From Candidatus Omnitrophota bacterium (GTDB lineage: Bacteria > Omnitrophota > Gorgyraeia > Tantalellales > Tantalellaceae), in NCBI GenBank assembly GCA_043813915.1, contig JBDRKO010000001.1, forward strand, positions 64,835 through 128,834: a stretch of DNA of 64,000 nt, in the 5' to 3' direction. Position 1 is the first letter of the stretch; each line of letters starts with the position of its first letter. Below, piece after piece: positions 6,125 through 57,536 of this stretch. The translations under genes were made by a program, and so were the position numbers. The notes under the pieces were generated by a model. It saw only the letters and a list, made by a program, of their open reading frames with translations, was not told where the DNA came from and made no database searches.

Positions 6125-7786
6125 TTATTTTCTGAAATCAAAAAGCGCCTTCTTTTTGTCCCCCTCGGCGGAGGATGTTCTCCCATATACTTCCGCTTTT
6201 TCTTTTGAAACTTTTATTTTGCCCTTCTTCACTGCGCCGTTCTCGGCGCTCCCTTGCCCAGGATAATGCTTATCATACTGAGCCTTAGTGCCCGGGAAAT
6301 TCAGGGTATCCCTGCCGTCCCTTATGATATGCACCGTCACAAAGAAAACGACCTCGGTCTTTTCTTTGTTGTCCTGCTTATATTTAACTAACCCTCCTAC
6401 ATAGGGTATCCACCCCAGAACGTCCCCGAGTATCGGGAACTTATGATCTTCTTTCGACAAGGTTTCCGATATCAGCCCGCCGATAAATATCGTCTCCCCG
6501 TCCCTGACCATGACCTGCGTATCCGCTTCCCGGGACTGATACTGCATCGCCACCGTATTCTGCGAATTGCTCACTTCCAGTTCCGTGAACGCGAGATTAC
6601 TGGATACCTGCGGGTGCAGATCTACCGTGACCTCATTGTTGTCATTGACATGCGGAGTGACCTCCAATATTACCCCTACCTGACGGGGTACGCTCTCGAA
6701 CTCCACGGTCACCAGGGTCCCGGTATCACCTGTTGACTGGCTTTTCTGCAGGAACACATTGTTCACCACGCGTATCACCGCCGCCTGATTGTTGAGAGTG
6801 GTCACCCTGGGGCTCGATAATATCTCGGTATCATCCCGTTCGTCCAGCATTCTAAGAACAGCTGTAAATTGGCTAAAATCAAGCGTCCCGTAGGAAAAGA
6901 TCGAGTTCGCGACCGCGGCCGCCGTAACATCGATACCATCGTCATCACTGTTATAAACCTGCGGAAAATTCGTATCCGCTTGGCCTCTGTTGATCTCGGG
7001 ATAAAATTCGCGTTGCGTACCCGGGAGCCATTTAAATATCCCATTATTCGAGAACGGAAAAGTTACCGGCCTTCTCGCTCCGGCGGCGGAAACTACCGCG
7101 TTCCAATCGACCCCGAACTCATCGGTCTTGTCCAGGGTAACCTCTATGACCTTAGCCTCCAGCATGATCTGCGGTGTCTTTTTGTCTATTCTTCCTACCA
7201 TATCCTTTATACTGCTGATACGGGCGGGGATCGCCGTAACGACTATGGCGTTCGCGCTCGCGAGAAATGTCGCTTTTTCCCCGGCAACAGATACTATGAC
7301 CGAATTTATGGCGTCCAAAAGCTGCTTGATGCTCTGATCTTTTTCCGAAGAACCCTCCTGCACCATATAATTCAGCGGGATGACGACCGTTACCGGCTCT
7401 TCCGTCTGGAGCACATCCTTAGGCATTACCCGTATTATTCCTTCTTCGTCGTCACGGGAATACACATACCCGTAATTCCTGGTCACAATATCCAAAGCGA
7501 CCACCCAGGGTTTGTCTCGGAGCCTCATGGTCACTGCCCCCTCAACCCCCGGGGACGGCACTATATCCACTCCGCTTATTTCGGAAAGGTAATGAAGCAC
7601 CGTCTTAATATCCACATCCTTGAAATTGACGCTTATATTCCCGGACGAGGGAAGCTTTTGGATCATTCCTTCGGCCGCCCCGGGGTTATTCACATCGCCG
7701 AAAAGGTCCGCCGGAGCAAATACCGTAAGCGAGAAGATCACCGCTGTGATCACAGCTACCCCGCACATATTCTTTCTCAGAGTCAT
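6125..7786 (-). CDS. pilQ: type IV pilus secretin PilQ
   Basis: Signal peptide, N0/N1 region, C-terminal secretin domain (SSPRVTTLNNQAAVIRV, ETIFIGGLI, FPILGDVLGWIPYVG). Confidence 0.85.
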   Translation of the reverse strand: MTLRKNMCGVAVITAVIFSLTVFAPADLFGDVNNPGAAEGMIQKLPSSGNISVNFKDVDIKTVLHYLSEISGVDIVPSPGVEGAVTMRLRDKPWVVALDIVTRNYGYVYSRDDEEGIIRVMPKDVLQTEEPVTVVIPLNYMVQEGSSEKDQSIKQLLDAINSVIVSVAGEKATFLASANAIVVTAIPARISSIKDMVGRIDKKTPQIMLEAKVIEVTLDKTDEFGVDWNAVVSAAGARRPVTFPFSNNGIFKWLPGTQREFYPEINRGQADTNFPQVYNSDDDGIDVTAAAVANSIFSYGTLDFSQFTAVLRMLDERDDTEILSSPRVTTLNNQAAVIRVVNNVFLQKSQSTGDTGTLVTVEFESVPRQVGVILEVTPHVNDNNEVTVDLHPQVSSNLAFTELEVSNSQNTVAMQYQSREADTQVMVRDGETIFIGGLISETLSKEDHKFPILGDVLGWIPYVGGLVKYKQDNKEKTEVVFFVTVHIIRDGRDTLNFPGTKAQYDKHYPGQGSAENGAVKKGKIKVSKEKAEVYGRTSSAEGDKKKALFDFRK

Positions 7787-8160: not shown

Positions 8161-8743
8161 ATGTCTTTAGTGTCATGCTAATATCGTGTTGCCTTGGGGA
8201 ACCCTCGTTATACTGTATACGCAAGTCCTCGATCGAAACGAACCTGCTTCCTTTCTCCAGATTGCTTATGAACTGCGCCAGTTGATGATATCCGCTCTTC
8301 GCGGATATCCGGATAGGCATTTCCGCGTAATATATTTTCCCGTCGCTCTCCTGGGCCGACCTAAGTTCCGAAGGTGTTATACTTATGATGTTGACCCCCG
8401 AAACTTTGGCTATCGAGGCCAGTCCCTCAAGGAATTCCGGAATATCTTTCTGACCGGGCAATCCTTCCGAATACCCTTCCAGTTCCGTTTTGATCTTGTC
8501 CAATGCTTCGGTCATCCCGTCAATACGGTTTACCCGTCCGCTGACCGACTCTATTTGCGTTCTCATCTCCGCCGCTTCTTTTCCGGTCTTCAAAAAAAAT
8601 AACGTCCCGGGTATGATGCATGTCATGGCGTAGACCATCCCGGCCAGCGCGATAGCGCCCGCGATGATATACCGCCTCATCCCTTCATCGCTGATAAGCT
8701 CTTTTATTTTCGCCGCGTTAAGGTCTTTTAACTCGATCATTTT
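8144..8743 (-). CDS. pilO: type IV pilus assembly protein PilO
   Basis: Single TM segment plus coiled coil and PilO-like C-terminus; likely start MIELKDLN overlapping pilN stop (ATGA). Confidence 0.7.
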   Translation of the reverse strand, partial: KMIELKDLNAAKIKELISDEGMRRYIIAGAIALAGMVYAMTCIIPGTLFFLKTGKEAAEMRTQIESVSGRVNRIDGMTEALDKIKTELEGYSEGLPGQKDIPEFLEGLASIAKVSGVNIISITPSELRSAQESDGKIYYAEMPIRISAKSGYHQLAQFISNLEKGSRFVSIEDLRIQYNEGSPRQHDISMTLKTYVSGQ

Positions 8744-9453: not shown

Positions 9454-10470
9454 TTATGTTCTTAAGGCCAGCCCTATAGCGACAGCCAGCTGCGGTGATA
9501 CCGAAAGTATTTCCTCTTCCGGTATCGTTTCGTCCAATTTTATCCGGCCTATGGGATCCCATCCCTTTATGTCCATTCCAAGTTCTTTGCCTATCAGCGC
9601 TATCTTATCCTTTTGAGATACGGCGCCTCCCGAACAATATATTTTGCTGACACGCTTATTATATCGGTTCTCGAAATACCCGAAAGATAAATGCAGTTCA
9701 TTCACGATCTCCTTGATCACCTGTATCTGGATAGCGCGCACATCGTCTCCCAGGCTTTCATCCGGGACAGATTTGGCCTTTTCCGCTTCATCCTCAGACA
9801 CGGAAAGTTCTCTGGATATCAGATCCGTTATGTTCTTTCCGCCTATCTGTATCTGTCTCATAAAACAGGGCATCCCGTCCGAGAACACCAATACATCGGT
9901 CTGAGAATGCCCGATATTGAGGAACGCGCTTACTTCTTCCGCGGGAAGCTCATGCGACCGGATGAACGCGTTGTACACGGCGAACGGAGCGATGTCCAGG
10001 ATATTGATGCCGATACCCAATTCGGAGAGCAGGCGGATACGCGCATCGACCAATTCCCTTTTCGCGGCCGCAAGCAGTACCTTCATCTGTCCATGTTCCT
10101 GGATCTCCCCGATTATTATGGAATCCAGCACCACCTCATTCACGCTGAACGGGATATATTTTTCCGCTTCATAGACCAAGGCGCTCTCAAGCTGATCTTT
10201 CTTCATTTTGGGAAGGTTCACGAACCTGACGATCACATCCGGCCCCGAAAGAGACAGATTTACCTCGGAGGGCGAAAGCTCCGCCCCCTTCAAAAGCTCC
10301 TTTATCGCTTTTTTAAGCTCGGTCTCTTTAATGTTCCAGGGAACACTCTTAATATTGTACGCACGGAGGGTCTGGGTCTCTGCTCTTTTTTCCAAAGACA
10401 CGACCTTGAGGGAATAGCTTCCTATATCCAGGCCTACGGTCTCATTGGTTATTCTTTTATTTTTTGCCAT
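9454..10470 (-). CDS. pilM: type IV pilus assembly ATPase-like protein PilM
   Basis: Actin-like fold, VGLDIGSYSLKVV N-terminus, length 338 aa. Confidence 0.85.
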   Translation of the reverse strand: MAKNKRITNETVGLDIGSYSLKVVSLEKRAETQTLRAYNIKSVPWNIKETELKKAIKELLKGAELSPSEVNLSLSGPDVIVRFVNLPKMKKDQLESALVYEAEKYIPFSVNEVVLDSIIIGEIQEHGQMKVLLAAAKRELVDARIRLLSELGIGINILDIAPFAVYNAFIRSHELPAEEVSAFLNIGHSQTDVLVFSDGMPCFMRQIQIGGKNITDLISRELSVSEDEAEKAKSVPDESLGDDVRAIQIQVIKEIVNELHLSFGYFENRYNKRVSKIYCSGGAVSQKDKIALIGKELGMDIKGWDPIGRIKLDETIPEEEILSVSPQLAVAIGLALRT

Positions 10471-11002: not shown

Positions 11003-11044
11003 AAAAAAATAAAAAAAAGGGAACGGCCGTTAACGACCGTTCCC
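11003..11044 (-). terminator. rho-independent terminator downstream of second pilin gene
   Basis: GGGAACGGCCGT-TAA-CGACCGTTCCC hairpin followed on the minus strand by a >15 nt U tract. Confidence 0.6.
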
Positions 11045-11067
11045 TTTTCAGCTCAAAACCGTACGTG

Positions 11068-11397
11068 TTACTGGAGCTTATGTCCGGCAGTGCTGCATGT
11101 AGGTCTCGTTCCTGAAATATCATATGTGCCCTTAGCCGGACATGCCGGAGTGGCTTTCAGATAATCCGGGGAAAGAGCTGCGAGCGTGGCGGGGTTAGCC
11201 CCCGTATCCAGGTTATAAAGCACCATCGCCCCTTCTATCTGCTTCAGGTTGGATATACATGCATTTTTTTGAGCACTTTCTCTGGCTTTCACAAAGTTCG
11301 GTATGGCTATAGCAGCCAATAAACCTATAATTGCGACTACGATCATAATTTCGACCAATGTGAAACCCTTTTTACCCAATAATTTCTGCATTTTCAT
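11068..11397 (-). CDS. pilA: type IV pilin / GspG-like pseudopilin, probable major pilin
   Basis: MKMQKLLGKKG|FTLVEIMIVVAIIGLLAAIAIPNF; ACISNLKQIEGA motif; strong SD AAGGAGGTG 7 nt upstream; own promoter and strong terminator. Confidence 0.75.
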   Translation of the reverse strand: MKMQKLLGKKGFTLVEIMIVVAIIGLLAAIAIPNFVKARESAQKNACISNLKQIEGAMVLYNLDTGANPATLAALSPDYLKATPACPAKGTYDISGTRPTCSTAGHKLQ

Positions 11398-14466: not shown

Positions 14467-16194
14467 TCACTGCGCTGTTTCCCTGTCCGCTGTCGTCACT
14501 CTCAATACTTCTTCCAACGATGTCTTTCCTTCCAACACGTTCTCTATCCCGTTCTCCCTCAGTGTTACCATGCCTTCTTTTCTCGCTACGCTCTCTATCT
14601 CGGCTTCTTGGGCCTTTTCAAAGATCAACTTTTTTATTTCCGGTGAAAGTTTCATACACTCTATTATCCCTATACGGCCAAGATATCCGGTATTAGAACA
14701 GCGTTTGCATCCTTTGGGCCGGCAGATTCTGACCTTCTTTCCGTCTTTACCGAAAAGCCTGAACTTCCCGGCAATATCATCCGTCGGCTCATATGCTTCT
14801 TTGCAGTCGCTGCAGAGTTGACGGATCAGCCTCTGCGCGGCCACCAGTTCTACGGAGGCCGCTATAAGGAATGGGTCGATCCCCATATTCGTCATCCTTA
14901 TTATGGAACCGGCGGCGGTATTGGTATGGAGCGTACTGAGCACCAAGTGCCCTGTAAGCGCCGATTTTATAGCGACATCAAGCGTGTCATAATCCCTTAT
15001 CTCCCCGACCATGATTATGTCGGGGTCCTGCCGCAAGATAGATCTTAACGTGCTGGCGAACGTAAGCCCCACTTCCTCGTTGACCGCTACTTGGTTCAGC
15101 CCTTTCATTTCGTATTCGACCGGATCCTCTACGGTTATTATGTTCTTTTTCGGATCGTCCACATGGCACATCGCGGCGTATAGAGTGGTCGTCTTTCCGC
15201 ACCCGGTAGGTCCGCAGATGAGGATCATACCGTGAGGTTTTTCGCTAGCTTCCTTTATCCTCGCGCTGTCCCGATCTTTCAAGCCCAGCCTATCGAGATC
15301 TATGACCGCCTGTTCTTTGTCCAGGATTCGCAAGGCGACCTTTTCCCCGAAACTGGACGGGACAGTAGATATACGAAAATCCACTTTCCTGTCCTCTATC
15401 TTTATCCGGAACCGTCCGTCCTGAGGCAAGCGTCTCTCGGTAATATCCAGACCGGACATGACCTTAAGCCGGGAAACTAACGCCTGGTGGAATTTGCGGG
15501 GGGGACTGTAACTTACGTGAAGCATACCGTCGACCCGGTATCTTATACGCGATTCGTTCTCCATGGGTTCGATGAGAATATCGCTTGCCCTTTCTTTGAC
15601 CGCCCGCCCGAGTATCATGTTGGTGAGCTTGACGACCGGCGCCTCTTCGGTTATGCGCAGAAGGTCTCCCGAAGAAAGGTTCTCATCTTCCTCTTTCACC
15701 ATCTCCATTTTCGCGCTCTCGATGTCATCTGCTATAGTAGATATCTCCTCATCCGCGGATCTTTCATGATATTTTCGTATGGCATCCTGCATATCGTCTT
15801 CCGCGACAATAACGGGACTTATGTGCATGTTCGTAACGGCCTTCAGGTCGTCCAAAGCCATTATGTTCAGAGGATCCACCATCGCCACGGTAAGCTGATC
15901 AGCCGTGTGCGATATCGGCAGTATTTGATACGCGATGGATATCTTTTTCGGAATGATCTTCAGGGTATCTTCATCGATATGGAAGCTTGAAAGTTTCATC
16001 GGGGGAAACCCGAGTTCCTCGCTTACGGAGGTCATTATGTCATCTTTTGAAATGAGGTTCATCCCAACGAGCGTTTCGCTGAGGCTCCCCCCCTTCTTGG
16101 AACATATCTCCCATGCTTTGCGGAGATCATTTTCGGTCACCAGTTTTTTTTTGACCAGGAATTCACAGATCCTCTTAGTAAGCGACAATGCCAT
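14467..16194 (-). CDS. PilB/GspE-family ATPase paralogue 2
   Basis: Same architecture, Walker A GPTGCGKTTT, CSDC...CKRC; N-terminal MshEN-like motifs degenerate. Confidence 0.85.
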   Translation of the reverse strand: MALSLTKRICEFLVKKKLVTENDLRKAWEICSKKGGSLSETLVGMNLISKDDIMTSVSEELGFPPMKLSSFHIDEDTLKIIPKKISIAYQILPISHTADQLTVAMVDPLNIMALDDLKAVTNMHISPVIVAEDDMQDAIRKYHERSADEEISTIADDIESAKMEMVKEEDENLSSGDLLRITEEAPVVKLTNMILGRAVKERASDILIEPMENESRIRYRVDGMLHVSYSPPRKFHQALVSRLKVMSGLDITERRLPQDGRFRIKIEDRKVDFRISTVPSSFGEKVALRILDKEQAVIDLDRLGLKDRDSARIKEASEKPHGMILICGPTGCGKTTTLYAAMCHVDDPKKNIITVEDPVEYEMKGLNQVAVNEEVGLTFASTLRSILRQDPDIIMVGEIRDYDTLDVAIKSALTGHLVLSTLHTNTAAGSIIRMTNMGIDPFLIAASVELVAAQRLIRQLCSDCKEAYEPTDDIAGKFRLFGKDGKKVRICRPKGCKRCSNTGYLGRIGIIECMKLSPEIKKLIFEKAQEAEIESVARKEGMVTLRENGIENVLEGKTSLEEVLRVTTADRETAQ

Positions 16195-16686: not shown

Positions 16687-17748
16687 TCATGAAATAAGTT
16701 TGGACAGCTCTTCCACGTCCGACGATCTTCCTATGGCCTCTTCCGCGCTTATCTCGCCTTTTTCATAAAGCTCCGCTAAAGCCTGGTTCATGGTCTTCAT
16801 CCCGCTCTTCTGCGACGTCTGTATAACGGAATATATCTGATGCTCCTTACCGTCCCTTATCAGGCTGCGTATCGCCGGGTTAGCGACCAGTATCTCCGAA
16901 GCCAGGACTCTGCCTTTACCGTTCTTTCTTGGAACGAGCTGCTGCGATATGATTCCCGAAAGCACAAAAGACAGCTGTGCTCTGATCTGTTTCTGCTGAT
17001 GCGCCGGAAAAACATCCACTATACGGTTTATGGTCTGTGTACTGTCCGAAGTATGAAGCGTCCCCAGGACAAGATGCCCCGTATCCGCTATTATCATAGC
17101 CTGCTGAATGGTATCCACGTCCCTGAGCTCTCCTATCAGTATAACATCCGGGTCCTGCCTCAATACATGCACCAGCGCGTTCGTAAAAGAATGCGTATCC
17201 TCCAGCAGCTGGCGCTGGTCGACTATGGCCATATTGTTATCGTGAACGAACTCTATCGGGTCTTCGACGGTTACGATATGACAATCCCTTGTCCGGTTTA
17301 TCTCATCCACGATCGCCGCCAGTGTAGTGGATTTACCGCTTCCCGTCGCTCCCGTCACAAGAACGAGCCCTTTAAGCATTTCGCAGAATTTCCCGACAAC
17401 TTTTTCGGGCAAGCCGCATTCCGATATCCCTTTTATGGAAAGAGGTATAAGTCTTATCGCGCATCCTATTTCGCCCCGCTGCAGGAAGATATTTCCTCTG
17501 TACCTGGCTACCCCTTCTATGGAAAGCGAGAAATCCAGTTCTTTATCCTTCTCGAATCTCTCCAATTGTTCCGGCGTAAGAAGGCTGTGTATAATGTCTC
17601 TTGCTTCATCTCCCGACAGGGCCTTTCCTTCTATTTCCACCAGGCGTCCGTCAATACGATAGTGCATAGGGGAGTTCACCCCTATATGCATATCCGACGC
17701 GTCGTTCGCCGGCATCGCGGACAGCAGTTTGCGGATATCATCTCTCAT
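16687..17748 (-). CDS. pilT: twitching motility retraction ATPase PilT
   Basis: 353 aa, Walker A GATGSGKSTT, PilT-type Asp/His boxes. Confidence 0.85.
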   Translation of the reverse strand: MRDDIRKLLSAMPANDASDMHIGVNSPMHYRIDGRLVEIEGKALSGDEARDIIHSLLTPEQLERFEKDKELDFSLSIEGVARYRGNIFLQRGEIGCAIRLIPLSIKGISECGLPEKVVGKFCEMLKGLVLVTGATGSGKSTTLAAIVDEINRTRDCHIVTVEDPIEFVHDNNMAIVDQRQLLEDTHSFTNALVHVLRQDPDVILIGELRDVDTIQQAMIIADTGHLVLGTLHTSDSTQTINRIVDVFPAHQQKQIRAQLSFVLSGIISQQLVPRKNGKGRVLASEILVANPAIRSLIRDGKEHQIYSVIQTSQKSGMKTMNQALAELYEKGEISAEEAIGRSSDVEELSKLIS

Positions 17749-18749: not shown

Positions 18750-20498
18750 TTACATGTTGAACCCTGTTTCTTTGAACTCTTTAACCAGCCATTCTTTTTT
18801 CACGCCTATGTCTATATGGTCCCAAGGCAGTATATCGTCCGTTCTGAATCTCTTCTCGGCGCATCCCCTCATATCGAGGCCTTCCGACCGAAAGGCTTCA
18901 TCCCATATTCCGGCGTTAAAAAATTCCGTCCAACCGTCCATTTTAGCCCCGTTCTTCCACGCGGCGTGGATAACGCGGGAGGTCTTTCTGTTCCCCCTTG
19001 CCATGGCCGCTTCCAATATGGACTGCCGGATACCGCTGAACTCGACCTTTATTTTTCTGGTGTTTCCCCTCATAAGCTCTCTCCGGCTCTCTCCCAGGCT
19101 TTCTTCGTTCTTCATCCCGAGCCATTGCATAGCGGTATGCGCCTTGGGCACGAAGGCGTTCACGCTGACCTTTACCTCGGCGCTCGATGACGAGATATCC
19201 TTCTTTAGTCCCGATAGTGTTCTCGCCAATTCAAGTATTTTCCGGGCTTCGTCCGTTCCGCTCCCCGGAAAACCTACCATGAAATACAGTTTTATCTTCT
19301 GCCACCCGTGCCGGAAAGCTTCTTGGGCTGATCTGCAGAGAACGGTCGGATCTATCTCCTTGGCCAAAGCTCTGCGGATCTCGGGATCCGGAGATTCTAC
19401 GGCAAAGGTCAACCCGGCTTTTCTTACGGCGGCTATCATTTCCGGAATAGCGTAGAAGGCTTTGTCTATCCTTAGAGAGGGAATAGATAGACCCACGCCT
19501 TTTCCCTTGAACTCTTCCGCTAACATTTCCACTAATTCCGCTAAACGCGGGTAGTTCACGCTGGAAAGAGAAAGAAGCGCTATCCTCTCATACCCTGTAT
19601 TAGCGTAAGTCTTGCGGCAGATATCAACTATTTTTTTTGGAGAACGCAGACGTACGGGACGGTTTATTGTCGAGGCCTGGCAGAAACGGCAACTGTTAGG
19701 ACAGCCCCTCATTATTTCTACCGCCATTCTGTCATGCACGGTCTGTACCAGGGGCACCAGCTGTCTGACCGGATAATACGCGTTCTCCATGCTTTCTACA
19801 AAGCTCCGTTCTACTTCCCGAGGAACACCGCTCTCAACGGGCCTTACGCCTTTATATTCCGATCCGGCATATGTCTCTTCATAGAACCGCGGCACATATA
19901 CGCCCTTTATTTTGGAAAGATCTTTCAACACGTCCCGTCTTTTTTTCCCGGTTTTCTTTGCCTCGGCATAGGCTCTGATAAGTTCCGGCAGCGCCTCTTC
20001 TCCGTCACCGATGACCATCGCGTCAAGGAAAAGGCTCATCGGTTCGGGATTACTGCAGCACGCGCCGCCCGCGATAACTATAGGCTCATCCTCCCCTCGA
20101 TCGGAAGAAAGGATATTTATCCCTCCCAGATGGAGTATGTTAAGGACATTCGTATACGTAAGTTCATAAGACAGCGAGAACCCCACGATATCGAACTCAT
20201 TGGCGGGTCTTTTTGTTTCTAGGCTGAAAAGACGCATCCCGCCGGCCTTGAGTTCTTCTTCCATATCCGGCCATGGCGCGAACATTCTTTCGCATACGGC
20301 GCTCGCCATATCATTGACCAGATGATAAAGCACCTTCAGACCGAGATAGCTCATGCCCACTTCGTATGTGTCGGGATAAGAAAGCAGGACCGACGTCATC
20401 CCCGGGCCGTGTTCTTTCCGGACACTGTTCGTCTCGCATCCTATATACCTGCCGGGTTTCCGGACTCTGGTAAGCATGTCTTTCAGTTTGTCATTCAT
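18750..20498 (-). CDS. TIGR03960-family B12-binding-like radical SAM protein
   Basis: KPGRYIGCETNSV...PDTYEVGMSYLGLKVLY...GFSLSYELTYTNVLNIL...CPNSCRFCQ; true start MNDKLKD, upstream ORF extension runs into the repeat region. Confidence 0.8.
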   Translation of the reverse strand: MNDKLKDMLTRVRKPGRYIGCETNSVRKEHGPGMTSVLLSYPDTYEVGMSYLGLKVLYHLVNDMASAVCERMFAPWPDMEEELKAGGMRLFSLETKRPANEFDIVGFSLSYELTYTNVLNILHLGGINILSSDRGEDEPIVIAGGACCSNPEPMSLFLDAMVIGDGEEALPELIRAYAEAKKTGKKRRDVLKDLSKIKGVYVPRFYEETYAGSEYKGVRPVESGVPREVERSFVESMENAYYPVRQLVPLVQTVHDRMAVEIMRGCPNSCRFCQASTINRPVRLRSPKKIVDICRKTYANTGYERIALLSLSSVNYPRLAELVEMLAEEFKGKGVGLSIPSLRIDKAFYAIPEMIAAVRKAGLTFAVESPDPEIRRALAKEIDPTVLCRSAQEAFRHGWQKIKLYFMVGFPGSGTDEARKILELARTLSGLKKDISSSSAEVKVSVNAFVPKAHTAMQWLGMKNEESLGESRRELMRGNTRKIKVEFSGIRQSILEAAMARGNRKTSRVIHAAWKNGAKMDGWTEFFNAGIWDEAFRSEGLDMRGCAEKRFRTDDILPWDHIDIGVKKEWLVKEFKETGFNM

Positions 20499-20817
20499 GA
20501 GTTCCTTGTGGTGCTTGGTAATAAAAATAGCATAGGGCAAAGCGCATAGAGCACAGCATATAGGTTTGTCGGGTTTGTGGAGTTTGTAGAGTTTATTGGG
20601 TCGTATTGACCGATGCCCCATTCGTGACTCGTGATCCGTGATTCGTGATTCGTTCACTACTTTTTGACACTCTGACACTTTGACACTCTGACTCTTTCTC
20701 TACCCTCGCGCTTCTCCTTCCGCTACGAACTATTTAACCTTTAAAACTTTTTAACTTTTCAAACTGCTCTCTCTCTGACCTCTGTCTTCTGACTTCTGTC
20801 TTCTGATTTCTGATCCC
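20499..20817. repeat. modular interspersed intergenic repeat, copy A
   Basis: Modules GCATAGGGCA..GCATAGAGCACAG, GTATTGACCGATGC, (CGTGAYTCGTGA)n, (TGACACTY)n, CTACGAACTAT, (TCTGTCTTCTGACTTC)n are shared with 42060-42605, 45053-45163 and 57217-57536. Confidence 0.55.
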
Positions 20818-21912
20818 TCACCTATGCACTCTCCTGCTGATGCTCAGAAGCAGGCCTATGCCGAGAAAGGTGACTATGGTATTGGACCCTCCGTAGCTGA
20901 TCGCGGGCAGAGGGAGGCCCACAACAGGCATCAGCCCTATGGTCATAGAGACATTGACTATTACCTGAAACGCTATCAATGTAACGACCCCGACAGCTAT
21001 CGCTTTCCCGTAGATGTCAGGCACATCATGCGCGATCTTTATCCCTCTCCATATGATGACCGCGTAAAGGCCCAGAAGCATCATCGCTCCTATGAAACCC
21101 CATTCTTCACCGATCACGGAAAAGATGAAATCCGTATGGCGTTCGGGCAGGAACCTAAGATAATTCTGCGTACCATTGAGCCATCCTTTCCCGAAAATAC
21201 CGCCCGACCCTATGGCTATTTTGGACTGTATTATCGTATACCCGGCCCCCAAAGGATCAAGGTTCGGATTTATAAAAACAAGCAGACGGTTCTTTTGATA
21301 ATCCTTAAGCAGCAGCCAGAGTACCGGCAAACTGAAAAAACCTAAGGACATTACGGATACCAGATGTTTTACGCGGGCCCCGCAGGCGAATAACATAGCG
21401 CAGGCTATAGGCGCGAGCACTATCGCCGTTCCCAGGTCGGGCTGCATGAATATCAGTAATGCCGCCGGCAGGACCAAGAGAAGCGCTTTGATAAAAGTCC
21501 CCAGCGATCCTATCTTCTCCCTTCTTTCCCCTAAAAAATACGCCAGCGCCAAGATGACCGTTATCTTCACGAATTCCGAGGGTTGCAGAGATACCGGGCC
21601 CAAAGTGATCCATCTTCTCGCGCCGTACCTTTCCCCGCCAAAGAGAAGCAATAATATCAGCGCCGCGATATTCAGAGCGTATGCCGCATACCCGAGATCA
21701 AGTATTTTCAGATAATCCATTCTCGAGATCACGAGCAGTATGAACAGACCCGTTATCACCCACGCGGTCTGTTTTATGACAAGGGCGCTGATCCCCCCGC
21801 CGCCCGCAAGACTGCTGGTAGCGGAATATACGAACGCGATCCCAAGCACGGAAACCAGGACCGCCGCGCCGCATAATATTTTATCCATCCTGCCGAGTTT
21901 TTCTTTTTTCAT
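20818..21912 (-). CDS. rodA: peptidoglycan glycosyltransferase RodA (SEDS family)
   Basis: FtsW/RodA family, directly downstream of mrdA. Confidence 0.8.
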   Translation of the reverse strand: MKKEKLGRMDKILCGAAVLVSVLGIAFVYSATSSLAGGGGISALVIKQTAWVITGLFILLVISRMDYLKILDLGYAAYALNIAALILLLLFGGERYGARRWITLGPVSLQPSEFVKITVILALAYFLGERREKIGSLGTFIKALLLVLPAALLIFMQPDLGTAIVLAPIACAMLFACGARVKHLVSVMSLGFFSLPVLWLLLKDYQKNRLLVFINPNLDPLGAGYTIIQSKIAIGSGGIFGKGWLNGTQNYLRFLPERHTDFIFSVIGEEWGFIGAMMLLGLYAVIIWRGIKIAHDVPDIYGKAIAVGVVTLIAFQVIVNVSMTIGLMPVVGLPLPAISYGGSNTIVTFLGIGLLLSISRRVHR

Positions 21913-35561: not shown

Positions 35562-35790
35562 AATATCCGTCAATTTACCGATACCCCGGGCTAAAGACCG
35601 GAGCTTGCTTGCCCTGAGCGAAGCCGAAGGGCTTGCCCTGAGCGAAGCCGAAGGGCTTGCCCTGCCTGCCCCGCCTGTCCCGAGCAAAGCCGAGGGGAGT
35701 TTGTCGAGGGGAGCGAACCCGAAGGGTTCCCTATCGACCCGGCACGGCAGTGTCCCGAGCAAAGCGAGGGGAGCACCGGCGAATGGGTGA
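35562..35790. repeat. intergenic repeat element copy 1, abutting ftsA stop, with internal 25-bp tandem expansion
   Basis: TGTCAATTTACCGATACCCCGGGCTAAAGACCGGAGCTTGCTTGCCCTGAGCGAAGCCGAAGGG ... GGCGAATGGGTGAA; about 2.5 tandem GCTTGCCCTGAGCGAAGCCGAAGGG units plus degenerate units; inverted copy at 53135-53262. Confidence 0.55.
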
Positions 35791-35792
35791 AC

Positions 35793-36860
35793 TTAGAAAT
35801 AACTGTCAATAAAATTGATGATCTTATCCGCGGCACCTTTAAAAAGATCCGTGTTCCTCCTATCCTTTAGGCGTTCGGAGTATAAGTAGTCCAGCATACC
35901 CAGACTGCCTACGTACCCAACCCTATCCTGCGGCAATTTCTCGAAAGGACGGACCGAACAGTTCCCGATCTTCACGGGAAGCTTGAACACATTTTCCGCC
36001 GCGTCTATAAATTCTTCCGTCATCGCGTCCTCAAAAAAGACAACGATCTTACGGACTTTATCCCATCCCTCTAAACTTTTGGTATCCGAATAAAGCGTCC
36101 GGAGCGCCTCTTCCTGTACACCCGCCTCTCCTGACATCATCTCCTCGGTTCCGCCGTGCGATACGCGTACTCCGCACAATATGCCGTCGTTGAACACGAG
36201 CGTTTCCTGAAGGTCCCTGCGGATAGCCAGAAAAATAGCTCCTTTCTGCATATCCTCTTCCGAAAGTATCCTATAAGCCGAAGCCAGTCCCGAAAAAATG
36301 AACCCCGCGGGAACGGATCCGGAATCCGCTATGACCCTTTGCATGTTCCTTATGACGGAAGAATTTACCGTTACGACGTTCACGTGGGCATCCAGCTTGA
36401 TCCCTTCAAGGTTGAATGGATCATGAATACCGTCTTCCCCGTCAACCGCGAACCCGGCCACTATGCGGTGGATGGGCTCCTTCTCTATAGGCATCTTTAC
36501 GATAGAGGCCATTTTGATACATCGCTTAATGTCAAAACGCGATATCTCCCTGCCGTACTTAGACACGAGTACGGTACCTATCCCTTTCGTGAGACCCAAG
36601 GAGGAAGAGCTTATACCCGCGTATACATCTCTTATCCCCTTGGTATCCAGCCGTCCTATGACCTCTCCGATCGTATCGGTCGCGGCTCCGGAGTCAGAGA
36701 CAGCTCCCCTGAGGAACCCTCTGGAAGGGACCCTGGAGAATTTCTCTATGGCATAATCACCGCTCCGGTTCCATCTGACCGAGACGGCCGTGACATTCGT
36801 GCTGCCGATGTTCACCGTCGCAAAATATTTACCCATCGAACGTCCTTGTTTTGTTACCAT
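35793..36860 (-). CDS. ftsA: cell division protein FtsA
   Basis: Actin-like fold, 355 aa, immediately after ftsQ. Confidence 0.85.
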   Translation of the reverse strand: MVTKQGRSMGKYFATVNIGSTNVTAVSVRWNRSGDYAIEKFSRVPSRGFLRGAVSDSGAATDTIGEVIGRLDTKGIRDVYAGISSSSLGLTKGIGTVLVSKYGREISRFDIKRCIKMASIVKMPIEKEPIHRIVAGFAVDGEDGIHDPFNLEGIKLDAHVNVVTVNSSVIRNMQRVIADSGSVPAGFIFSGLASAYRILSEEDMQKGAIFLAIRRDLQETLVFNDGILCGVRVSHGGTEEMMSGEAGVQEEALRTLYSDTKSLEGWDKVRKIVVFFEDAMTEEFIDAAENVFKLPVKIGNCSVRPFEKLPQDRVGYVGSLGMLDYLYSERLKDRRNTDLFKGAADKIINFIDSYF

Positions 36861-42051: not shown

Positions 42052-42605
42052 TAATATATCCTTGTGTATAAAAGTCTAAAGGTCTAAAGGTCTTTTAAGT
42101 AAATTGCCAGAAACCTGTTACCAGTTGCCAGACCAAAACAGTTTAAAAGTCTAAATGTCGAAAGTCCCAATAGACCATTGACTGTTGACCATGGACTATT
42201 GACCATTATGCGAATCCATCAATACTGACCTATTTGTCGCTAAAGACAATGGTCAATCGTCAATTGTCCATAGTCCAATATCGTCTCCGTCCTCTGACTT
42301 CTGTCTTCTGACTTCTAGCTCTCCGGAATACCCGCTCTTCTCAGTCCGCTTTAGCGGACTGGATGTCCAGTATCTTCCGAGCTCTTCCCCTCCATCCAAC
42401 GTATAGTCCTGGTCACGACAATAACTTCGTTACCTGATCGGGTGGGTATTCTAGGCGAGTTCCGCAACCCCGCTGCTTTGTTTTGCAAAGCAAAACAACG
42501 GGGTGAGGACTGTCTGAGCCCAGAATACCCGCCGATCGGGTAACCATTTTCACATCAGTCAATACAACCCGACAAACTCTACAAACGCAACAAACCCCAC
42601 AAACC
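42052..42605. repeat. 550-bp repeat-dense spacer between ftsW and murG with extended hairpin (about 42432-42542)
   Basis: GTCTAAAGGTCTAAAGGTC, TTGACCAT/TATTGACCAT repeats, TCTGACTTCTGTCTTCTGACTTC module, CAGTCCGCTTTAGCGGACTG hairpin, long imperfect inverted repeat GATCGGGTGGGTATTCTAGG...CCCAGAATACCCGCCGATCGGG around the internal hairpin CCCCGCTGCTTTGTTTTGCAAAGCAAAACAACGGGG, inverted copy of the TTTGTAGAGTTTGTCGGGTTGTATTGACTGATG module. Confidence 0.55.
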
Positions 42606-43691
42606 CTACTCCGCTTCCCGCGCCATGTTCAATATGAGCCCCACCGCGGCCATATGACATACAAGCGAACTTCCGCCGTAACTGATAAAAGGAAGCGGCA
42701 GACCTTTTGTCGGCAATATCCCGGACGATACCCCGATATTCACTATCACCTCGAACGCTATCATTGTCGCAAGCCCGAATACGGCGGATGACGCGAATCT
42801 TTCTTTTATCTTGAAAGATATCCTGAACGCGTACCACACCAGCACGGCAAAAAGAAATATCGTCGCGGCCGCTCCCATGAACCCCAGTTCTTCCCCGATT
42901 ATGGAAAAAATAAAATCCGTATGCGATTCGGGAAGGTAGAAAAGTTTTTGTTTAGACTCCCCCAACCCCACTCCGAGCAATCCTCCCGACCCCAAAGCTA
43001 TGAAAGACTGTATGAGCTGAAAACCCGCCCCTTGAGCATCTTTCCACGGGTTCACAACGGTCAGAATACGGCTTATCCTGTACGGTTTGCTCTTGACGGC
43101 CCATATCAGAGCCGGTATCATACCCAGGACTATTGGCAAAAGATGCCCGACCTTTATTCCCGCGGAGAACAGCATGACCGTTCCGATGAACAATATCGCG
43201 ACAAATGTCCCCATATCCGGCTCTAAAAGGACAAGACCTCCGATGAACCCCACGGCAAAAAAAGACGGGATGAACCCCTTGTAAACATCCTGTATAAGAT
43301 TTCCTTTACGGGCGATAAGATCTGACAGATACAGGACCATCACTATCTTGGCGACTTCCGACGGCTGGAACCCAAAACCAAATAACCGTATCCATCTGCG
43401 CGCTCCCCCGGCCATCGTTCCTACACCCGGGACCATCACTAATACCAGAAGCAGTATGACCGCTAGCATCGCGGGTCGAGCATATTCTCTTATAGCCCCG
43501 GGTTTTACGGACATAAGGAGCACCGCGACCCCCAGGCCTGAAAGAAGAAAGAACAAATGTCTTTTTACGAAGAATAAGCTGTCATGGTAACGCCCGTACG
43601 CATATATCCCGCTGGATGAATATATCATGACTATACCAAGCATCAAGAGCATCGAGGCCGAGAACAATATCATCTTGGAATCTTTTATCAT
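42606..43691 (-). CDS. ftsW: cell division peptidoglycan glycosyltransferase FtsW
   Basis: SEDS family, ATGA overlap with murD. Confidence 0.85.
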   Translation of the reverse strand: MIKDSKMILFSASMLLMLGIVMIYSSSGIYAYGRYHDSLFFVKRHLFFLLSGLGVAVLLMSVKPGAIREYARPAMLAVILLLVLVMVPGVGTMAGGARRWIRLFGFGFQPSEVAKIVMVLYLSDLIARKGNLIQDVYKGFIPSFFAVGFIGGLVLLEPDMGTFVAILFIGTVMLFSAGIKVGHLLPIVLGMIPALIWAVKSKPYRISRILTVVNPWKDAQGAGFQLIQSFIALGSGGLLGVGLGESKQKLFYLPESHTDFIFSIIGEELGFMGAAATIFLFAVLVWYAFRISFKIKERFASSAVFGLATMIAFEVIVNIGVSSGILPTKGLPLPFISYGGSSLVCHMAAVGLILNMAREAE

Positions 43692-45052: not shown

Positions 45053-45163
45053 AATAGTGAACGGTGACTCGTAATTTGTAATTCGTGATTCGTGACTCGT
45101 GATTCGTAAGCAGTGAACAGTGAATCGTAGGGGCACGGCATGCCGTGCCCCTACCATCATCCG
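45053..45163. repeat. short intergenic repeat: (CGTGAYTCGTRA)n module plus perfect palindrome AGGGGCACGGCATGCCGTGCCCCT
   Basis: Directly downstream of the mraY stop; same CGTGATTCGTGA module as 20607-20640. Confidence 0.5.
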
Positions 45164-52069: not shown

Positions 52070-52106
52070 GAATATACCCCTCTGTTCTTTTCGGATGCGC
52101 GGCGCA

Positions 52107-52301
52107 TCAATGACCGCCGCTAAGAGCCCTGCCTATTATGCCCACCTGACTCTTGTAAAAACGGCTATATTCGCCTATTAGGTCCTTTCCCTTTCCTTTA
52201 TGTCCGGGGACCGACCTGTTTTTGTCCGCGCCCGACCGGGTCCTGCCGTAAATGGACCCGCCCATATCACATGCCTGGATATATCTTTTTACAGGTTTCA
52301 T
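52107..52301 (-). CDS. small hypothetical ORF (about 64 aa), translationally coupled to the upstream ORF
   Basis: ATGA stop-start overlap with ORF 52298-52489; basic protein; no recognisable family. Confidence 0.2.
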   Translation of the reverse strand: MKPVKRYIQACDMGGSIYGRTRSGADKNRSVPGHKGKGKDLIGEYSRFYKSQVGIIGRALSGGH

Positions 52302-52489
52302 CCGCAATCCTTTATCGTAAGATACGACCTTTTCCCCAATCCGGAGGACGAAACAACAAACCTCTTTACGCCCAGATGCTCTATCCCCGCGGGAAGCGCC
52401 CTGGCTTTCTTGATCCTTTCCACCATGTTCACGCAGTTTATGAATTCCATCTGTTTTTTATGGAATTTTATAGCGTATCTTCTGTACAT
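52298..52489 (-). CDS. small hypothetical ORF (63 aa) inserted between mraZ and rsmH
   Basis: Starts 22 nt after the mraZ stop; no recognisable family. Confidence 0.2.
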   Translation of the reverse strand: MYRRYAIKFHKKQMEFINCVNMVERIKKARALPAGIEHLGVKRFVVSSSGLGKRSYLTIKDCG

Positions 52490-52511
52490 GTTGCCCTCCT
52501 TAGAATGATCT

Positions 52512-53134: not shown

Positions 53135-53262
53135 CATTCGCCCCAGCGAAACCCCGCGCACTGCAGGATCAATTGGGAACCCTTCGGCTTCGCTCAGGGC
53201 AAGCAAGCCCCGGTCTCTAAACCGGAGTATCGGTGAATTGACAGATAAAGCGGATACGTTTC
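53135..53262. repeat. intergenic repeat element copy 2 (inverted relative to copy 1), upstream of mraZ
   Basis: Reverse complement reads TGTCAATTCACCGATACTCCGGTTTAGAGACCGGGGCTTGCTTGCCCTGAGCGAAGCCGAAGGGTTCCC...GGGGCGAATGGGTAAA, matching 35562-35790 without the tandem expansion. Confidence 0.55.
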
Positions 53263-53314: not shown

Positions 53315-53361
53315 AAAAAAAAAAAAAAAAGGGGTGAGACAGACCTTATCTATCTCACCCC
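53315..53361 (-). terminator. strong rho-independent terminator, hairpin structure is bidirectional
   Basis: GGGGTGAGAcagaccttatctaTCTCACCCC hairpin flanked by A16 on one side (U16 on the minus strand) and TTTTATCTT on the other. Confidence 0.6.
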
Positions 53362-53385
53362 TTTTATCTTCACATACATTACGCC

Positions 53386-56461: not shown

Positions 56462-56832
56462 ATATTCCGGTTCTCCTTGACAGCATTATACTATTAAAGA
56501 ATCAGGCAGTAAAGGTGTTTAGTAGATGGTGAATTGTATTGCGGGATATATCCGGCTACCCGGCATATTGGAACATCCTTCTTTGCCGAACTATTTTATA
56601 CTATTTGGCTTCGAAGGGATAGTTCCTGCGACAAAGTTCCTCCGAAGCCCAATAAGGCGAAGGAGAAAGCTTTAGCGAAACGAACATCCTCCCGAGAGGC
56701 GCTGAGAACGTAATCCGAGATGGATCGACACCGCGCTACACCCCAACATTACATTTACAGGGGCCCCGTAATAACATTAAATAGATGTAAGGAACCCTCC
56801 GCGTTTCGACAGAGGTGTCCGTTCAGCTTAGG

Positions 56833-57216: not shown

Positions 57217-57536
57217 GAGAGAACCTTATTTATGGTAAATAATATTTGGTGAATTGTAAACCGTAACAATCGCATAGGGCACAGGGCATAGAGCACAGTG
57301 TTGTATTGACTGATGCTCTAGACACCCTAACCCATTTCCATTACACATAACACATCACACATTACACGGCGTCTCTGTCTTCTGACTTCCGATCTCCACC
57401 TCCGTCATTGCGAGGAGGCGCCGAGAACGCAATGTTCGAGGTGTGCCGAGATCTCTGGGCGAGACCCGCAGACCGACGAAACAATCTCGTTCTTAGCTAC
57501 GAACTATGAACTACCAACTACGAACTATTTTCTGCC
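57217..57536. repeat. modular interspersed intergenic repeat, copy B
   Basis: GCATAGGGCACAGGGCATAGAGCACAG, GTATTGACTGATGC, TCTGTCTTCTGACTTC and (CTACGAACTAT)x3 modules in the same order as copy A; also shares AGGCGCYGAGAACG with 56690-56730. Confidence 0.55.

Follow-up and report, generated by a model that had tools for sequence, protein, structure and literature searches.

The 64,000-nt stretch analysed here (the window) covers positions 64,835 to 128,834 of contig JBDRKO010000001.1 in the Candidatus Omnitrophota bacterium assembly GCA_043813915.1. The product of its TIGR03960 radical-SAM gene is 100% identical to an NCBI protein assigned to a Candidatus Omnitrophota bacterium, and the homologues of MurG agree with this origin. 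The genes of the window lie nearly all on the minus strand, and four of its gaps, each separating co-directional genes, are occupied by short repeat modules: R1 (20499-20817, in window coordinates), from the rodA stop (20818) to the start of the TIGR03960 radical-SAM gene (20498); R2 (42052-42605), between ftsW and murG; R3 (45053-45163), between mraY and murD; and R4 (57217-57536), between a UPF0047 gene and a thioesterase gene. The initial annotation of this DNA described interspersed, modular repeats that recur in these four gaps in varying combinations and orientations, and we find that description to be genuine; the coordinates fit the gene ends, with R2 truly beginning at 42052 rather than 42060. 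Together the four regions make up ~2% of the window, and the arrays described below occupy four of its ~8 true gaps longer than 100 nt.

The sharing of k-mers among the four regions is well above chance. R1-R4 have 44 distinct 11-mers in common (dinucleotide shuffles: mean 0.28, maximum 6) and 17 14-mers (0.01 in the shuffles). The longest shared block, of 53 nt at 87% identity, is inverted (20563-20615 vs 42553-42605); R1 further shares a 35-nt block with R4 (57264-57298, 89% identity) and a 32-nt block with R2 (91% identity). Over its 554 nt, R2 differs by no single-nucleotide polymorphism and no indel from GCA_018817765.1 and from Joint Genome Institute (JGI) metagenome 3300014656, both of the same species (three assemblies with the window), and because it is identical in two other assemblies we take its sequence to be genuine, not an assembly artefact.

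Most of the modules are short degenerate tandem arrays of 2-6 copies with 80-94% matches, as delimited with Tandem Repeats Finder (TRF). The period 7 units are ATTCGTG, TCTGACT/TCTGTCT, CTACGAA, CATTACA, GACCATT, CAATCGT and GCAYAGR; those of period 8 are TGACACTC and TAAAGGTC, that of period 9 is GTTTGTNGR, and super-periods of 14, 16, 17 and 28 nt were also found. All arrays of period 7-28 that score >=41 in the window fall within R1-R4, with six different arrays in R1 alone. Between the arrays stand a punctuation motif, GACYGATG, and two kinds of hairpin element (type A and type B), all of them non-tandem. Some gaps are filled from edge to edge, an array or a palindrome beginning 0-11 nt past the upstream stop codon in each of R1-R4. 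The features are given below, where entries without a sign have no strand assigned; loci from other genomes are cited by L numbers, with their own coordinates.

20530, 20544, 57272 and 57286: GCATAGRGCA, from motif search, with a 4-nt spacer in both pairs
20603 (+), 57303 (+) and 42565 (-): M2, GTATTGACYGATG, from motif search
20623, 20637, 45084 and 45091: CGTGAYTCGTGA, from motif search
20723, 57497 and 57518: CTACGAACTAT, from motif search
20781, 42300 and 57374: TCTGTCTTCTGACTTC, from motif search
20530-20557: M1, heptamer/14-mer array GCATAGG GCAAAGC GCATAGA GCACAG (TRF period 14), 89% identical over 35 nt to 57264-57298
20563-20602: nonamer array (GTTTGTNGR) x4 (TRF period 9), forming with M2 a 53-nt block 87% complementary to 42553-42605
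20603-20616 (+): M2 punctuation motif GTATTGACCGATGC, core GACYGATG, non-tandem, with copies in R4 (+) and R2 (-)
20620-20653: heptamer array (ATTCGTG) x4.9 (TRF), common to 45060-45121 and L127:577-623
20663-20697: octamer array (TGACACTC) x4 (TRF period 8/16), with no other copy in the window
20723-20765: one CTACGAACTAT unit, then an 8/17-mer array of AACTTTTTAA type (TRF, motif search); 18 nt of it, AACCTTTAAAACTTTTTA, are identical in L127:447-464
20774-20813: heptamer/14-mer array (TCTGACT/TCTGTCT) x5.7 (TRF), its end lying 5 nt away from the rodA stop codon; it recurs at 42285-42316 (91%) and 57373-57404, and there is a related array in the Omnitrophota metagenome-assembled genome (MAG) L003:1077-1118
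42066-42164: two octamer arrays of TAAAGGTC / TAAAAGTC type (TRF and self-comparison), with related AAAGTYTAAAGG arrays in L127 and L130
42168-42282: inverted pair of heptamer arrays, GACCATT/GACTATT vs AATGGTC/AATCGTC (TRF), which may form a long imperfect hairpin; its units also occur in L127:534-570 and L130:16825-16847
42285-42316: heptamer array (TCTGACT/TCTGTCT) (TRF and self-comparison)
42429-42544 (+): type B hairpin element of 116 nt with a long outer stem and conserved GCGAGTTCCGCA and GAGGACTGTCTGAGC segments, fold z-score -6.4
42553-42605 (-): M2 and nonamer array, inverted, beginning directly at the ftsW stop codon
45056-45129: composite array (GTGAACN)(ATTCGTG/ACTCGTG)n(GTGAACA) (TRF periods 7, 14 and 28), ending 10 nt from the murD start codon
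45129-45152: perfect 24-nt palindrome, single copy, 11 nt past the mraY stop codon
56690-56730 (+): partial copy of M7 (GAGGCGCTGAGAACGTAATCCGAG) in a fifth intergenic gap (motif search)
57272-57316 (+): M1 array (GCATAGG GCACAGG GCATAGA GCACAG), then M2 (GTATTGACTGATGC) (TRF, motif search, self-comparison)
57339-57389: heptamer array (CATTACA) x4, then TCTGTCTTCTGACTTC (TRF, motif search)
57404-57495 (+): type A frame GTCATTGCGAGGAG...GACGAAACAATCTCG with M7, GAGGCGCCGAGAACGCAATGTTCGAGGTGTG, inside it (sequence comparison)
57497-57527: M5, heptamer array CTACGAA CTATGAA CTACCAA CTACGAA CTAT (TRF), adjoining the stop codon of the upstream gene

Several details of the first description are refined by this inventory. 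Every motif that it listed is present at or adjoining the place given, although TGACACTYTGACAC is a local array of R1 and not interspersed; the TGACACTY array is restricted to R1. The first module does occur twice, with a spacer that is always 4 nt and not 3-4 nt, and the second AGGCGCYGAGAACG copy exists at 56697, in a fifth gap (56462-56832) that had been overlooked. R1 and R4, which had been called the two longest regions and said to carry their modules in the same order, do both begin with M1 and M2, but their last two modules are swapped (M1, M2, CTACGAACTAT, TCTGTC... in R1; M1, M2, TCTGTC..., CTACGAACTAT in R4), and the longest region is R2. The block of nonamers and M2 is inverted between R1 and R2 although the genes there are co-directional; modules occur in either orientation relative to transcription. 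The 24-nt palindrome lies beside mraY at exactly the position first reported. It is unique in the window (chance expectation 0), absent from the 143 comparison loci and not followed by a T-run. The repeats also create false N-terminal extensions of open reading frames (ORFs), as had been proposed, of 60 codons for the radical-SAM gene and 36 for murD: the NCBI radical-SAM product of 582 aa puts the start at 20498, while MurD has 454 aa, with a MurD-like_N domain from residue 7, and its counterparts in relatives have 431-463 aa.

The hairpin element of R2 belongs to a family. We found six full type B copies (R2; L127:16577-16718; L130:15330-15428; L133:2401-2493, 8348-8468 and 9716-9864), of 93, 99, 116, 121, 142 and 149 nt, which have in common GCGAGTTCCGCA, a variable inner hairpin and GAGGAC(GTAA)TGTYYGAGC inside an outer stem of 20-25 bp whose sequence varies among the copies while pairing is kept. 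The core of the R2 copy is 89% identical over 64 nt to L133:8376-8439. A small second hairpin is nested within it at ~42467-42503, and a hairpin that is solitary at L127:15191 is found inside type B in the window and in L133. The orientation of type B relative to flanking genes is mixed. In all six copies the forward strand folds slightly better (G-U pairs 14 vs 8), which may be read as weak evidence of an RNA role. The family could represent a new structured RNA or a recognition hairpin. No Rfam family matched anywhere in the window at gathering thresholds, and at E<=1 the gaps gave chance-level matches to small nucleolar RNAs alone (E 0.08-0.35); neither the core of type B nor the M5 composite was found in scans of viral contigs. 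Two other candidates were rejected by eye: the type B ends do not fit the GTTRRRY/RYYYAAC core sites of integron attC, and CUGAGGAC...GUCCGAGG lacks the CUGAUGA/GAAA arrangement of a hammerhead core.

Type A frames have the form GTCATT[GC][CT]GAG...GAAG[CA]AATC with variable inserts and are often arranged as inverted pairs. M7, which is the AGGCGCYGAGAACG segment of the initial annotation, forms part of long-form type B, and in R4 it lies inside a type A frame; there its identity with the extended copies of type B (L127:16623-16666 and L133:9781-9811) is 84-90%. The modules thus nest inside one another. GTCATTGCGAG type A frames were found in the window (57404-57495), in L130 (9809-9894 and 16572-16610) and in L020, L037, L054, L062, L067 and L109; they span several phyla, namely Omnitrophota, cyanobacteria, a MAG of the Planctomycetes-Verrucomicrobia-Chlamydiae (PVC) group, an alphaproteobacterium and the unclassified MAG 'bacterium isolate STA_72', and adjoin heptamer arrays.

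We compared seven syntenic division and cell wall (dcw) loci of Omnitrophota, which five concatenated proteins split into two clades. Clade A comprises the window, L127 and L130 (64-67% identity within the clade), and clade B comprises L123, L125, L131 and L132 (56-60% identity to the window); L127 and L133 were taken as one genome, and L130 and L135 both belong to GCA_043822885.1. The lengths of the two dcw junctions that R2 and R3 occupy are as follows.

ftsW to murG: window 554 nt, L125 1 nt, L127 14 nt, L123 63 nt, L131 4-nt overlap, L130 316 nt, L132 1 nt
mraY to murD: window 111 nt, L125 27 nt, L127 14 nt, L123 54 nt, L131 7 nt, L130 293 nt, L132 538 nt

Several relatives have these junctions in compact form, so R2 and R3 represent expansions. 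Other lineages expand dcw junctions with different content (316 and 293 nt in L130, 538 nt in L132), and we found no filled and empty pair of orthologous sites: the nearest genome compared is ~65% identical in protein, and exact insertion points cannot be defined at that distance. In L132, a member of clade B, a ~55-nt hairpin GGGGACACGCCTGTTGTAGACGACACGTGGGGGCGCCCAGGCATGTCCCCGGAATATA occurs in four gaps and ~38-nt tandem repeats lie in the mraY to murD gap; this genome has a repeat repertoire of its own in dcw junctions (6913-7452, 11113-11226, 14685-14794, 15591-15842 and 16894-17280).

BLAST searches with R1-R4 gave 17 matches in the clade A loci (60 kb) and none in those of clade B (84 kb), shuffled queries giving a mean of 0.16. 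The modules of the window thus recur in clade A, at other, non-orthologous junctions, and tight module sharing is a property of that clade. L127 carries GTCAATA/GTCAATT arrays, AAAGTTTTAAAGG arrays and GACTGATG punctuation, and immediately before its rsmH gene stands the composite TTCACCGTTTACTGTTCACGAGTCACGACTTACGAATCACGAATCA, of which 45 nt (L127:577-621) show 84% identity to the part of R3 that adjoins the murD start. The ftsW to murG gap of L130 contains GTGAACA arrays, TTTAAAAG arrays, ATTGACCGATATGC, a type A hairpin and CTACGAACTAT arrays, and L135 has arrays of GCATAGG type together with CTACGAACTATGAACTATCAACTACG. M2 copies of GACTGATG/GACCGATG type stand between arrays in L127, L130 and L133. 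M5 of R4, CTACGAACTATGAACTACCAACTACG, matches CTACGAACTATGAACTATCAACTACG at L135:4089-4114 in 25 of 26 bases with the order of variant units kept, again at a non-orthologous junction, and is 95% identical to L130:9969-9988. Between genomes the modules are 84-96% identical, and within the window genome 79-91%. Since unit order and non-tandem pieces are kept at non-orthologous sites, independent slippage is not the whole story; the same conservation implies that blocks are copied as units or held constant by selection. The initial label 'lineage-specific' is therefore apt at the level of the clade only: two further Omnitrophota genomes, at ~65% protein identity, have these modules too, and arrays of GCATAGG type occur in at least 120 loci of many phyla.

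The latter figure comes from a scan for GCATAGRGCANNNNGCATAGRGCA in one genome per GTDB species, which returned at least 120 stretches against a chance estimate of ~4 that assumes uniform composition. Among the matches listed most are (GCATAGG)n in Microcoleus, Nostoc, Tychonema, Rivularia and Oscillatoria, and others are in Desulfobacterales/Desulfobacterota, Syntrophobacterales, Nitrospirota, Saprospiraceae (Bacteroidota), Planctomycetota, Omnitrophota, Patescibacteria and Herpetosiphon. In 840 kb of these listed loci the spectrum of periods is as in the window, with 7 (330 arrays) far ahead of 9 (114), 14 (74) and 8 (61). In the 120 listed loci ~87% of the GCATAGG arrays are intergenic, and they follow no strand rule (25 sense, 18 antisense, 19 convergent and 12 divergent); the TCTGTCT array of L003 is on the opposite strand relative to genes. 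We considered and rejected a restricted universal vocabulary of heptamers, since 372 arrays hold 133 distinct canonical units whose recurrences are mostly within related genomes; this breadth means that heptamer-rich genomes do not share one small universal set. In Microcoleus and its relatives (L006, L015, L018, L022, L023, L026, L030, L031, L042-L044, L049, L050 and others), (GCATAGG)n lies inside a recurring unit that resembles a miniature inverted-repeat transposable element (MITE), TATAGCCTTTCTCAG...ATGAGGTAC-(GCATAGG)n-TACCTCAC...GAGAACCGCTATA, and is thus carried within a larger dispersed element. Eight IMG/VR contigs classified as viral (L136-L143) carry arrays of GCATAGG type; they may be phages, prophage flanks or misclassified DNA.

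Known kinds of signal were also sought in R1-R4. Counts of sigma-70 promoters and intrinsic terminators there are no higher than in shuffles, and M1-M6, which are direct repeats, show no self-complementarity. There is a single inverted pair of heptamer arrays (42168-42282) and no repeated inverted doublet of a common unit. The heptamer modules have no terminal inverted repeats, while type B has long inverted arms whose sequence differs between copies, and no target-site duplication is visible at the type B copies of R2 (42429/42544) or L127 (16577/16718), where no empty site of a close relative was available for comparison. The nonamers were considered as DnaA boxes and set aside, as they match at 5-6 of 9 positions and GC skew, by eye, is monotonic across the window. 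Hairpins with flanking A-runs and T-runs, of the ordinary-looking bidirectional terminator type, lie at 11019-11046 and 53322-53370 in gaps free of modules, which shows that not every gap in the genome is colonised.

Some further observations concern the surroundings. A second repeat family, consisting of a perfect 24-nt tandem GCTTGCCCTGAGCGAAGCCGAAGG x2.4 and degenerate relatives, lies in the ftsA to proC gap (35564-35760), and a 68-nt, 90% identical inverted copy of it lies upstream of mraZ (53162-53247); in these two places the family brackets the whole dcw cluster. CCTGAGCGAAG(C/T)CGAAGG motifs similar to this family are present in Microcoleus (L022), Syntrophobacterales (L072) and Herpetosiphon (L111). 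At the end of that cluster the window (35793-36860 and downstream) and five of the six relatives (L123, L125, L127, L130 and L131) have ftsQ-ftsA, a long gap and proC-yggT. In the window and these five ftsA is not followed by ftsZ, nor is it in L132, where CTP_transf_like comes next. Two conserved small ORFs (~63 and 59-61 aa, without a Pfam match) precede rsmH in L123:28-458, L125:208-604 and L131:262-687, and sit between mraZ and rsmH where mraZ is visible (L125 and L131); on the gene strand, the counterpart stretch of the window (52070-52511, 442 nt) lacks ORFs of >=100 aa; it was not checked for the two small ones. rodA and ftsW share a 67-nt stretch at 81% identity (21085-21151 vs 42870-42936). 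All nine mismatches between the window and the JGI contig L002 cluster at the contig end adjoining this shared stretch (L002:26-108), which suggests that this end is chimeric.

The closest parallels to the modules come from cyanobacteria. To our knowledge neither their short tandemly repeated repetitive (STRR) sequences, described in 1990, nor their very small dispersed repeats, described in 2008, have an accepted origin or function. Elhai et al. are said to have described in 2008 the small dispersed repeats (SDRs, 21-27 nt) of Nostoc punctiforme, which lie within or beside heptamer arrays, are nested and in some cases form hairpins. SDRs are reportedly very small and noncoding, and conserved among related genomes. 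The likeness here is that M2 adjoins different arrays, that nesting is seen in type B (a hairpin) and in type A (M7), and that conservation follows clade A. By analogy, the punctuation motif and the small nested hairpins would find their nearest counterpart in SDRs, although the sequences are unrelated and mobility is here deduced from non-orthologous positions, not from filled versus empty sites. With STRRs and other long simple sequence repeats (LSSRs, units of 5-11 nt) the arrays have in common mostly 7-nt tandem units, several different units per gap, an almost exclusively intergenic location in either orientation and no known function; the unit GCATAGG is identical in Microcoleus, Nostoc, Tychonema, Rivularia and others, and the spectrum of periods is the same. 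Unlike STRRs, they are hosted by Omnitrophota (PVC group) and not by a filamentous or heterocystous cyanobacterium, the class name being descriptive and not taxonomic; they are short (2-6 units) and degenerate, form fixed composite modules whose unit order is kept across genomes, and interrupt a normally tight dcw operon.

In several bacteria no class of long simple sequence repeats (SSRs) is commoner than the heptanucleotides, for which slippage is a proposed source (Mrazek 2007, as summarised in PMC4679880). Three STRR heptamers have been described in Calothrix, while in Nostoc and Xanthomonas the DNA between genes is over-rich in heptamer SSRs (PMC4692102). Arrays of TAACTGA and of mixed heptamers are patchily distributed among Beggiatoaceae, Cyanobacteria and Bacteroidetes, and the closest relatives lack arrays at the same junction (MacGregor 2015, PMC4679880). 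The Beggiatoaceae case resembles ours in that one heptamer is patchy across phyla, gaps hold assemblages of different heptamers, close relatives have shorter, repeat-free gaps, and contigs break in repeats; in contrast, the 'Maribeggiatoa' repeats lie mostly just upstream of start codons and in one orientation, a rule that does not hold here, and the units differ. A preprint argues for regulatory effects in Nostoc, with no binding partner identified (bioRxiv 10.1101/2022.06.06.494920). In the literature we found no paper that ties Omnitrophota to such repeats. The initial annotation had called the family REP/MITE-like, after repetitive extragenic palindromic (REP) sequences and MITEs, and neither part of the label fits. 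REPs and REPINs (REP doublets forming hairpins) are likewise short, extragenic, clade-conserved and spread through intergenic DNA, but REPs are imperfect palindromes that form inverted doublets, number hundreds per genome and have a linked REP-associated tyrosine transposase (RAYT) (Bertels & Rainey 2011, PMC3116915), whereas the modules here are tandem direct repeats, not palindromic units, neither REPIN doublets nor, in the 64-kb window, a RAYT were seen, and the one palindrome is single in the window. As to MITEs, the arrays have no terminal inverted repeats or sharp ends, and no target-site duplication was found for them. The family resembles the STRR repeats of cyanobacteria in a new phylum, not a transposon family of the REP or MITE kind.

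The explanation we favour, although we consider the case for it evenly balanced, is that the gaps hold STRR/LSSR-like arrays and SDR-like small nested modules spread by DNA-level copy-paste. Gaps would be filled from a repertoire of 15-50-nt blocks with a tandem structure of 7, 8 or 9 nt, a punctuation motif and hairpin elements of 90-150 nt. Replication slippage or template switching could have produced the 7-9-nt periods, and the inverted array pairs fit template switching; blocks would then be copied as units into other intergenic sites, by DNA-level copy-paste or insertion. They would persist because intergenic DNA tolerates them, while unit lengths that are not multiples of three could not survive inside genes. 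A regulatory role is possible, though it is not needed. Several points speak against spread of this kind. Our view comprises the 64-kb window of the source genome and ~60 kb from related genomes, which is a narrow sample. No mobilising enzyme, terminal inverted repeat, target-site duplication or empty/filled polymorphism was found, the transposase genes of the window having had no systematic screen. R2 is invariant among three assemblies, so that neither slippage nor mobility is visibly active now. A scan of JGI metagenomes with the strict nonamer and M2 composite TTTRTYGGGTYGTATTGACYGATG recovered the orthologous contig alone, so the copy number may be low. Finally, identity between genomes is as high as within the genome, which is no worse a fit for sequence constraint (a function or a conserved template) than for selfish spread.

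This last point and the composite next to a start codon (below) are the best support of the main rival, according to which the modules are functional cis-acting elements: heptamer blocks would be arrays of sites for DNA- or RNA-binding proteins (post-transcriptional or translational control, operon punctuation), and hairpins would be structured RNAs or protein-binding hairpins in operon transcripts. We regard it as possible, if doubtful. It is difficult to see how, in genomes whose proteins are ~65% identical, module identity of 84-96% at non-orthologous sites could arise without constraint. In the window and in L127 the (GTGAAC)(GAATCAC)n composite has one orientation and directly adjoins a start codon (murD and rsmH, respectively), and paralogous type B stems are kept through different sequences (GTCC/GGAC vs GACC/GGTC, GGGGTGAGTATTC vs GGCGGGAGCATTGC) with the forward strand slightly better folded in every copy; regulatory roles for heptamer repeats have also been speculated upon (PMC4679880; bioRxiv 10.1101/2022.06.06.494920). 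Yet orientation to transcription is not conserved for M2 with the nonamers, M5, TCTGTCT or type B, position varies between relatives, and the sister-clade genomes lack the modules at the same junctions. Nor is there an Rfam match or an excess of promoters or terminators, and arm-to-arm correction in palindromic DNA can also maintain stems. We further offer, tentatively, the idea that an undescribed process with sequence specificity writes a fixed vocabulary of tiny elements into intergenic DNA, or maintains it there, the modules being its output. Such a process would explain both the 84-96% identity of the heptamer blocks with their fixed unit order, of the GACYGATG motif and of the nested hairpins at non-orthologous sites despite ~65% protein identity and the recurrence of GCATAGG arrays and GTCATTGCGAG...GAAGCAATC frames from cyanobacteria to Omnitrophota; type B (GCGAGTTCCGCA-[hairpin]-GAGGACTGTYTGAGC in a long co-varying stem) could then be either a structured RNA of a new kind or a hairpin that the mobilising enzyme recognises.

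Pure replication slippage in place, with the likeness due to convergence on slippage-prone units and no dispersal, would account for the short-period tandem structure of all modules, for the dominance of heptamers, as in other SSR-rich genomes, and for GCATAGG arrays in many unrelated phyla. We consider it unlikely, as orders of non-identical units recur (CTACGAA-CTATGAA-CTAYCAA-CTACGRA and GCATAGG-GCAMAGS-GCATAGA-GCACAG), as do the non-tandem M2 and M7 and the 53-nt composite, at other sites and in other genomes; the units, moreover, are degenerate (80-92% matches) and their copy number is invariant between assemblies, and with no strain variation in R2 among the three assemblies slippage of the phase-variation type is unsupported. 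Improbable, too, is a classical REP/REPIN or MITE family, non-autonomous and moved by a RAYT or insertion sequence transposase encoded elsewhere. The repeats are interspersed, intergenic, orientation-independent and clade-conserved like REP families, and type B, at 93-149 nt, has long inverted arms; these arms differ between copies, however, whereas ends recognised by a transposase ought to stay similar. The heptamer modules consist of direct repeats without REPIN-like inverted doublets, no target duplication is visible at the R2 and L127 copies of type B, and the strict-pattern metagenome scan gave no further copies. Chance similarity of low-complexity DNA, or an assembly artefact, comes to mind since short tandem repeats often break or confuse assemblies and the contigs of GCA_018817765.1 are short. 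It is nonetheless a vanishingly small possibility in view of the 44 shared 11-mers against 0.28, the identity of R2 in three independent assemblies and the recurrence of modules in other genomes.

Architecture of the STRR/SDR kind is thus present in Omnitrophota, including the inside of a conserved dcw operon. Short-read assemblies break in gaps of this type, which also give ORFs false N-terminal extensions; an unusually long 'intergenic' stretch within an operon of such a MAG should therefore not be taken to mean that genes are missing. Two leads deserve most attention, the contrast between clade A and clade B and the type B hairpin; the former offers a clean comparative system for phylogenetic profiling of the genes responsible.

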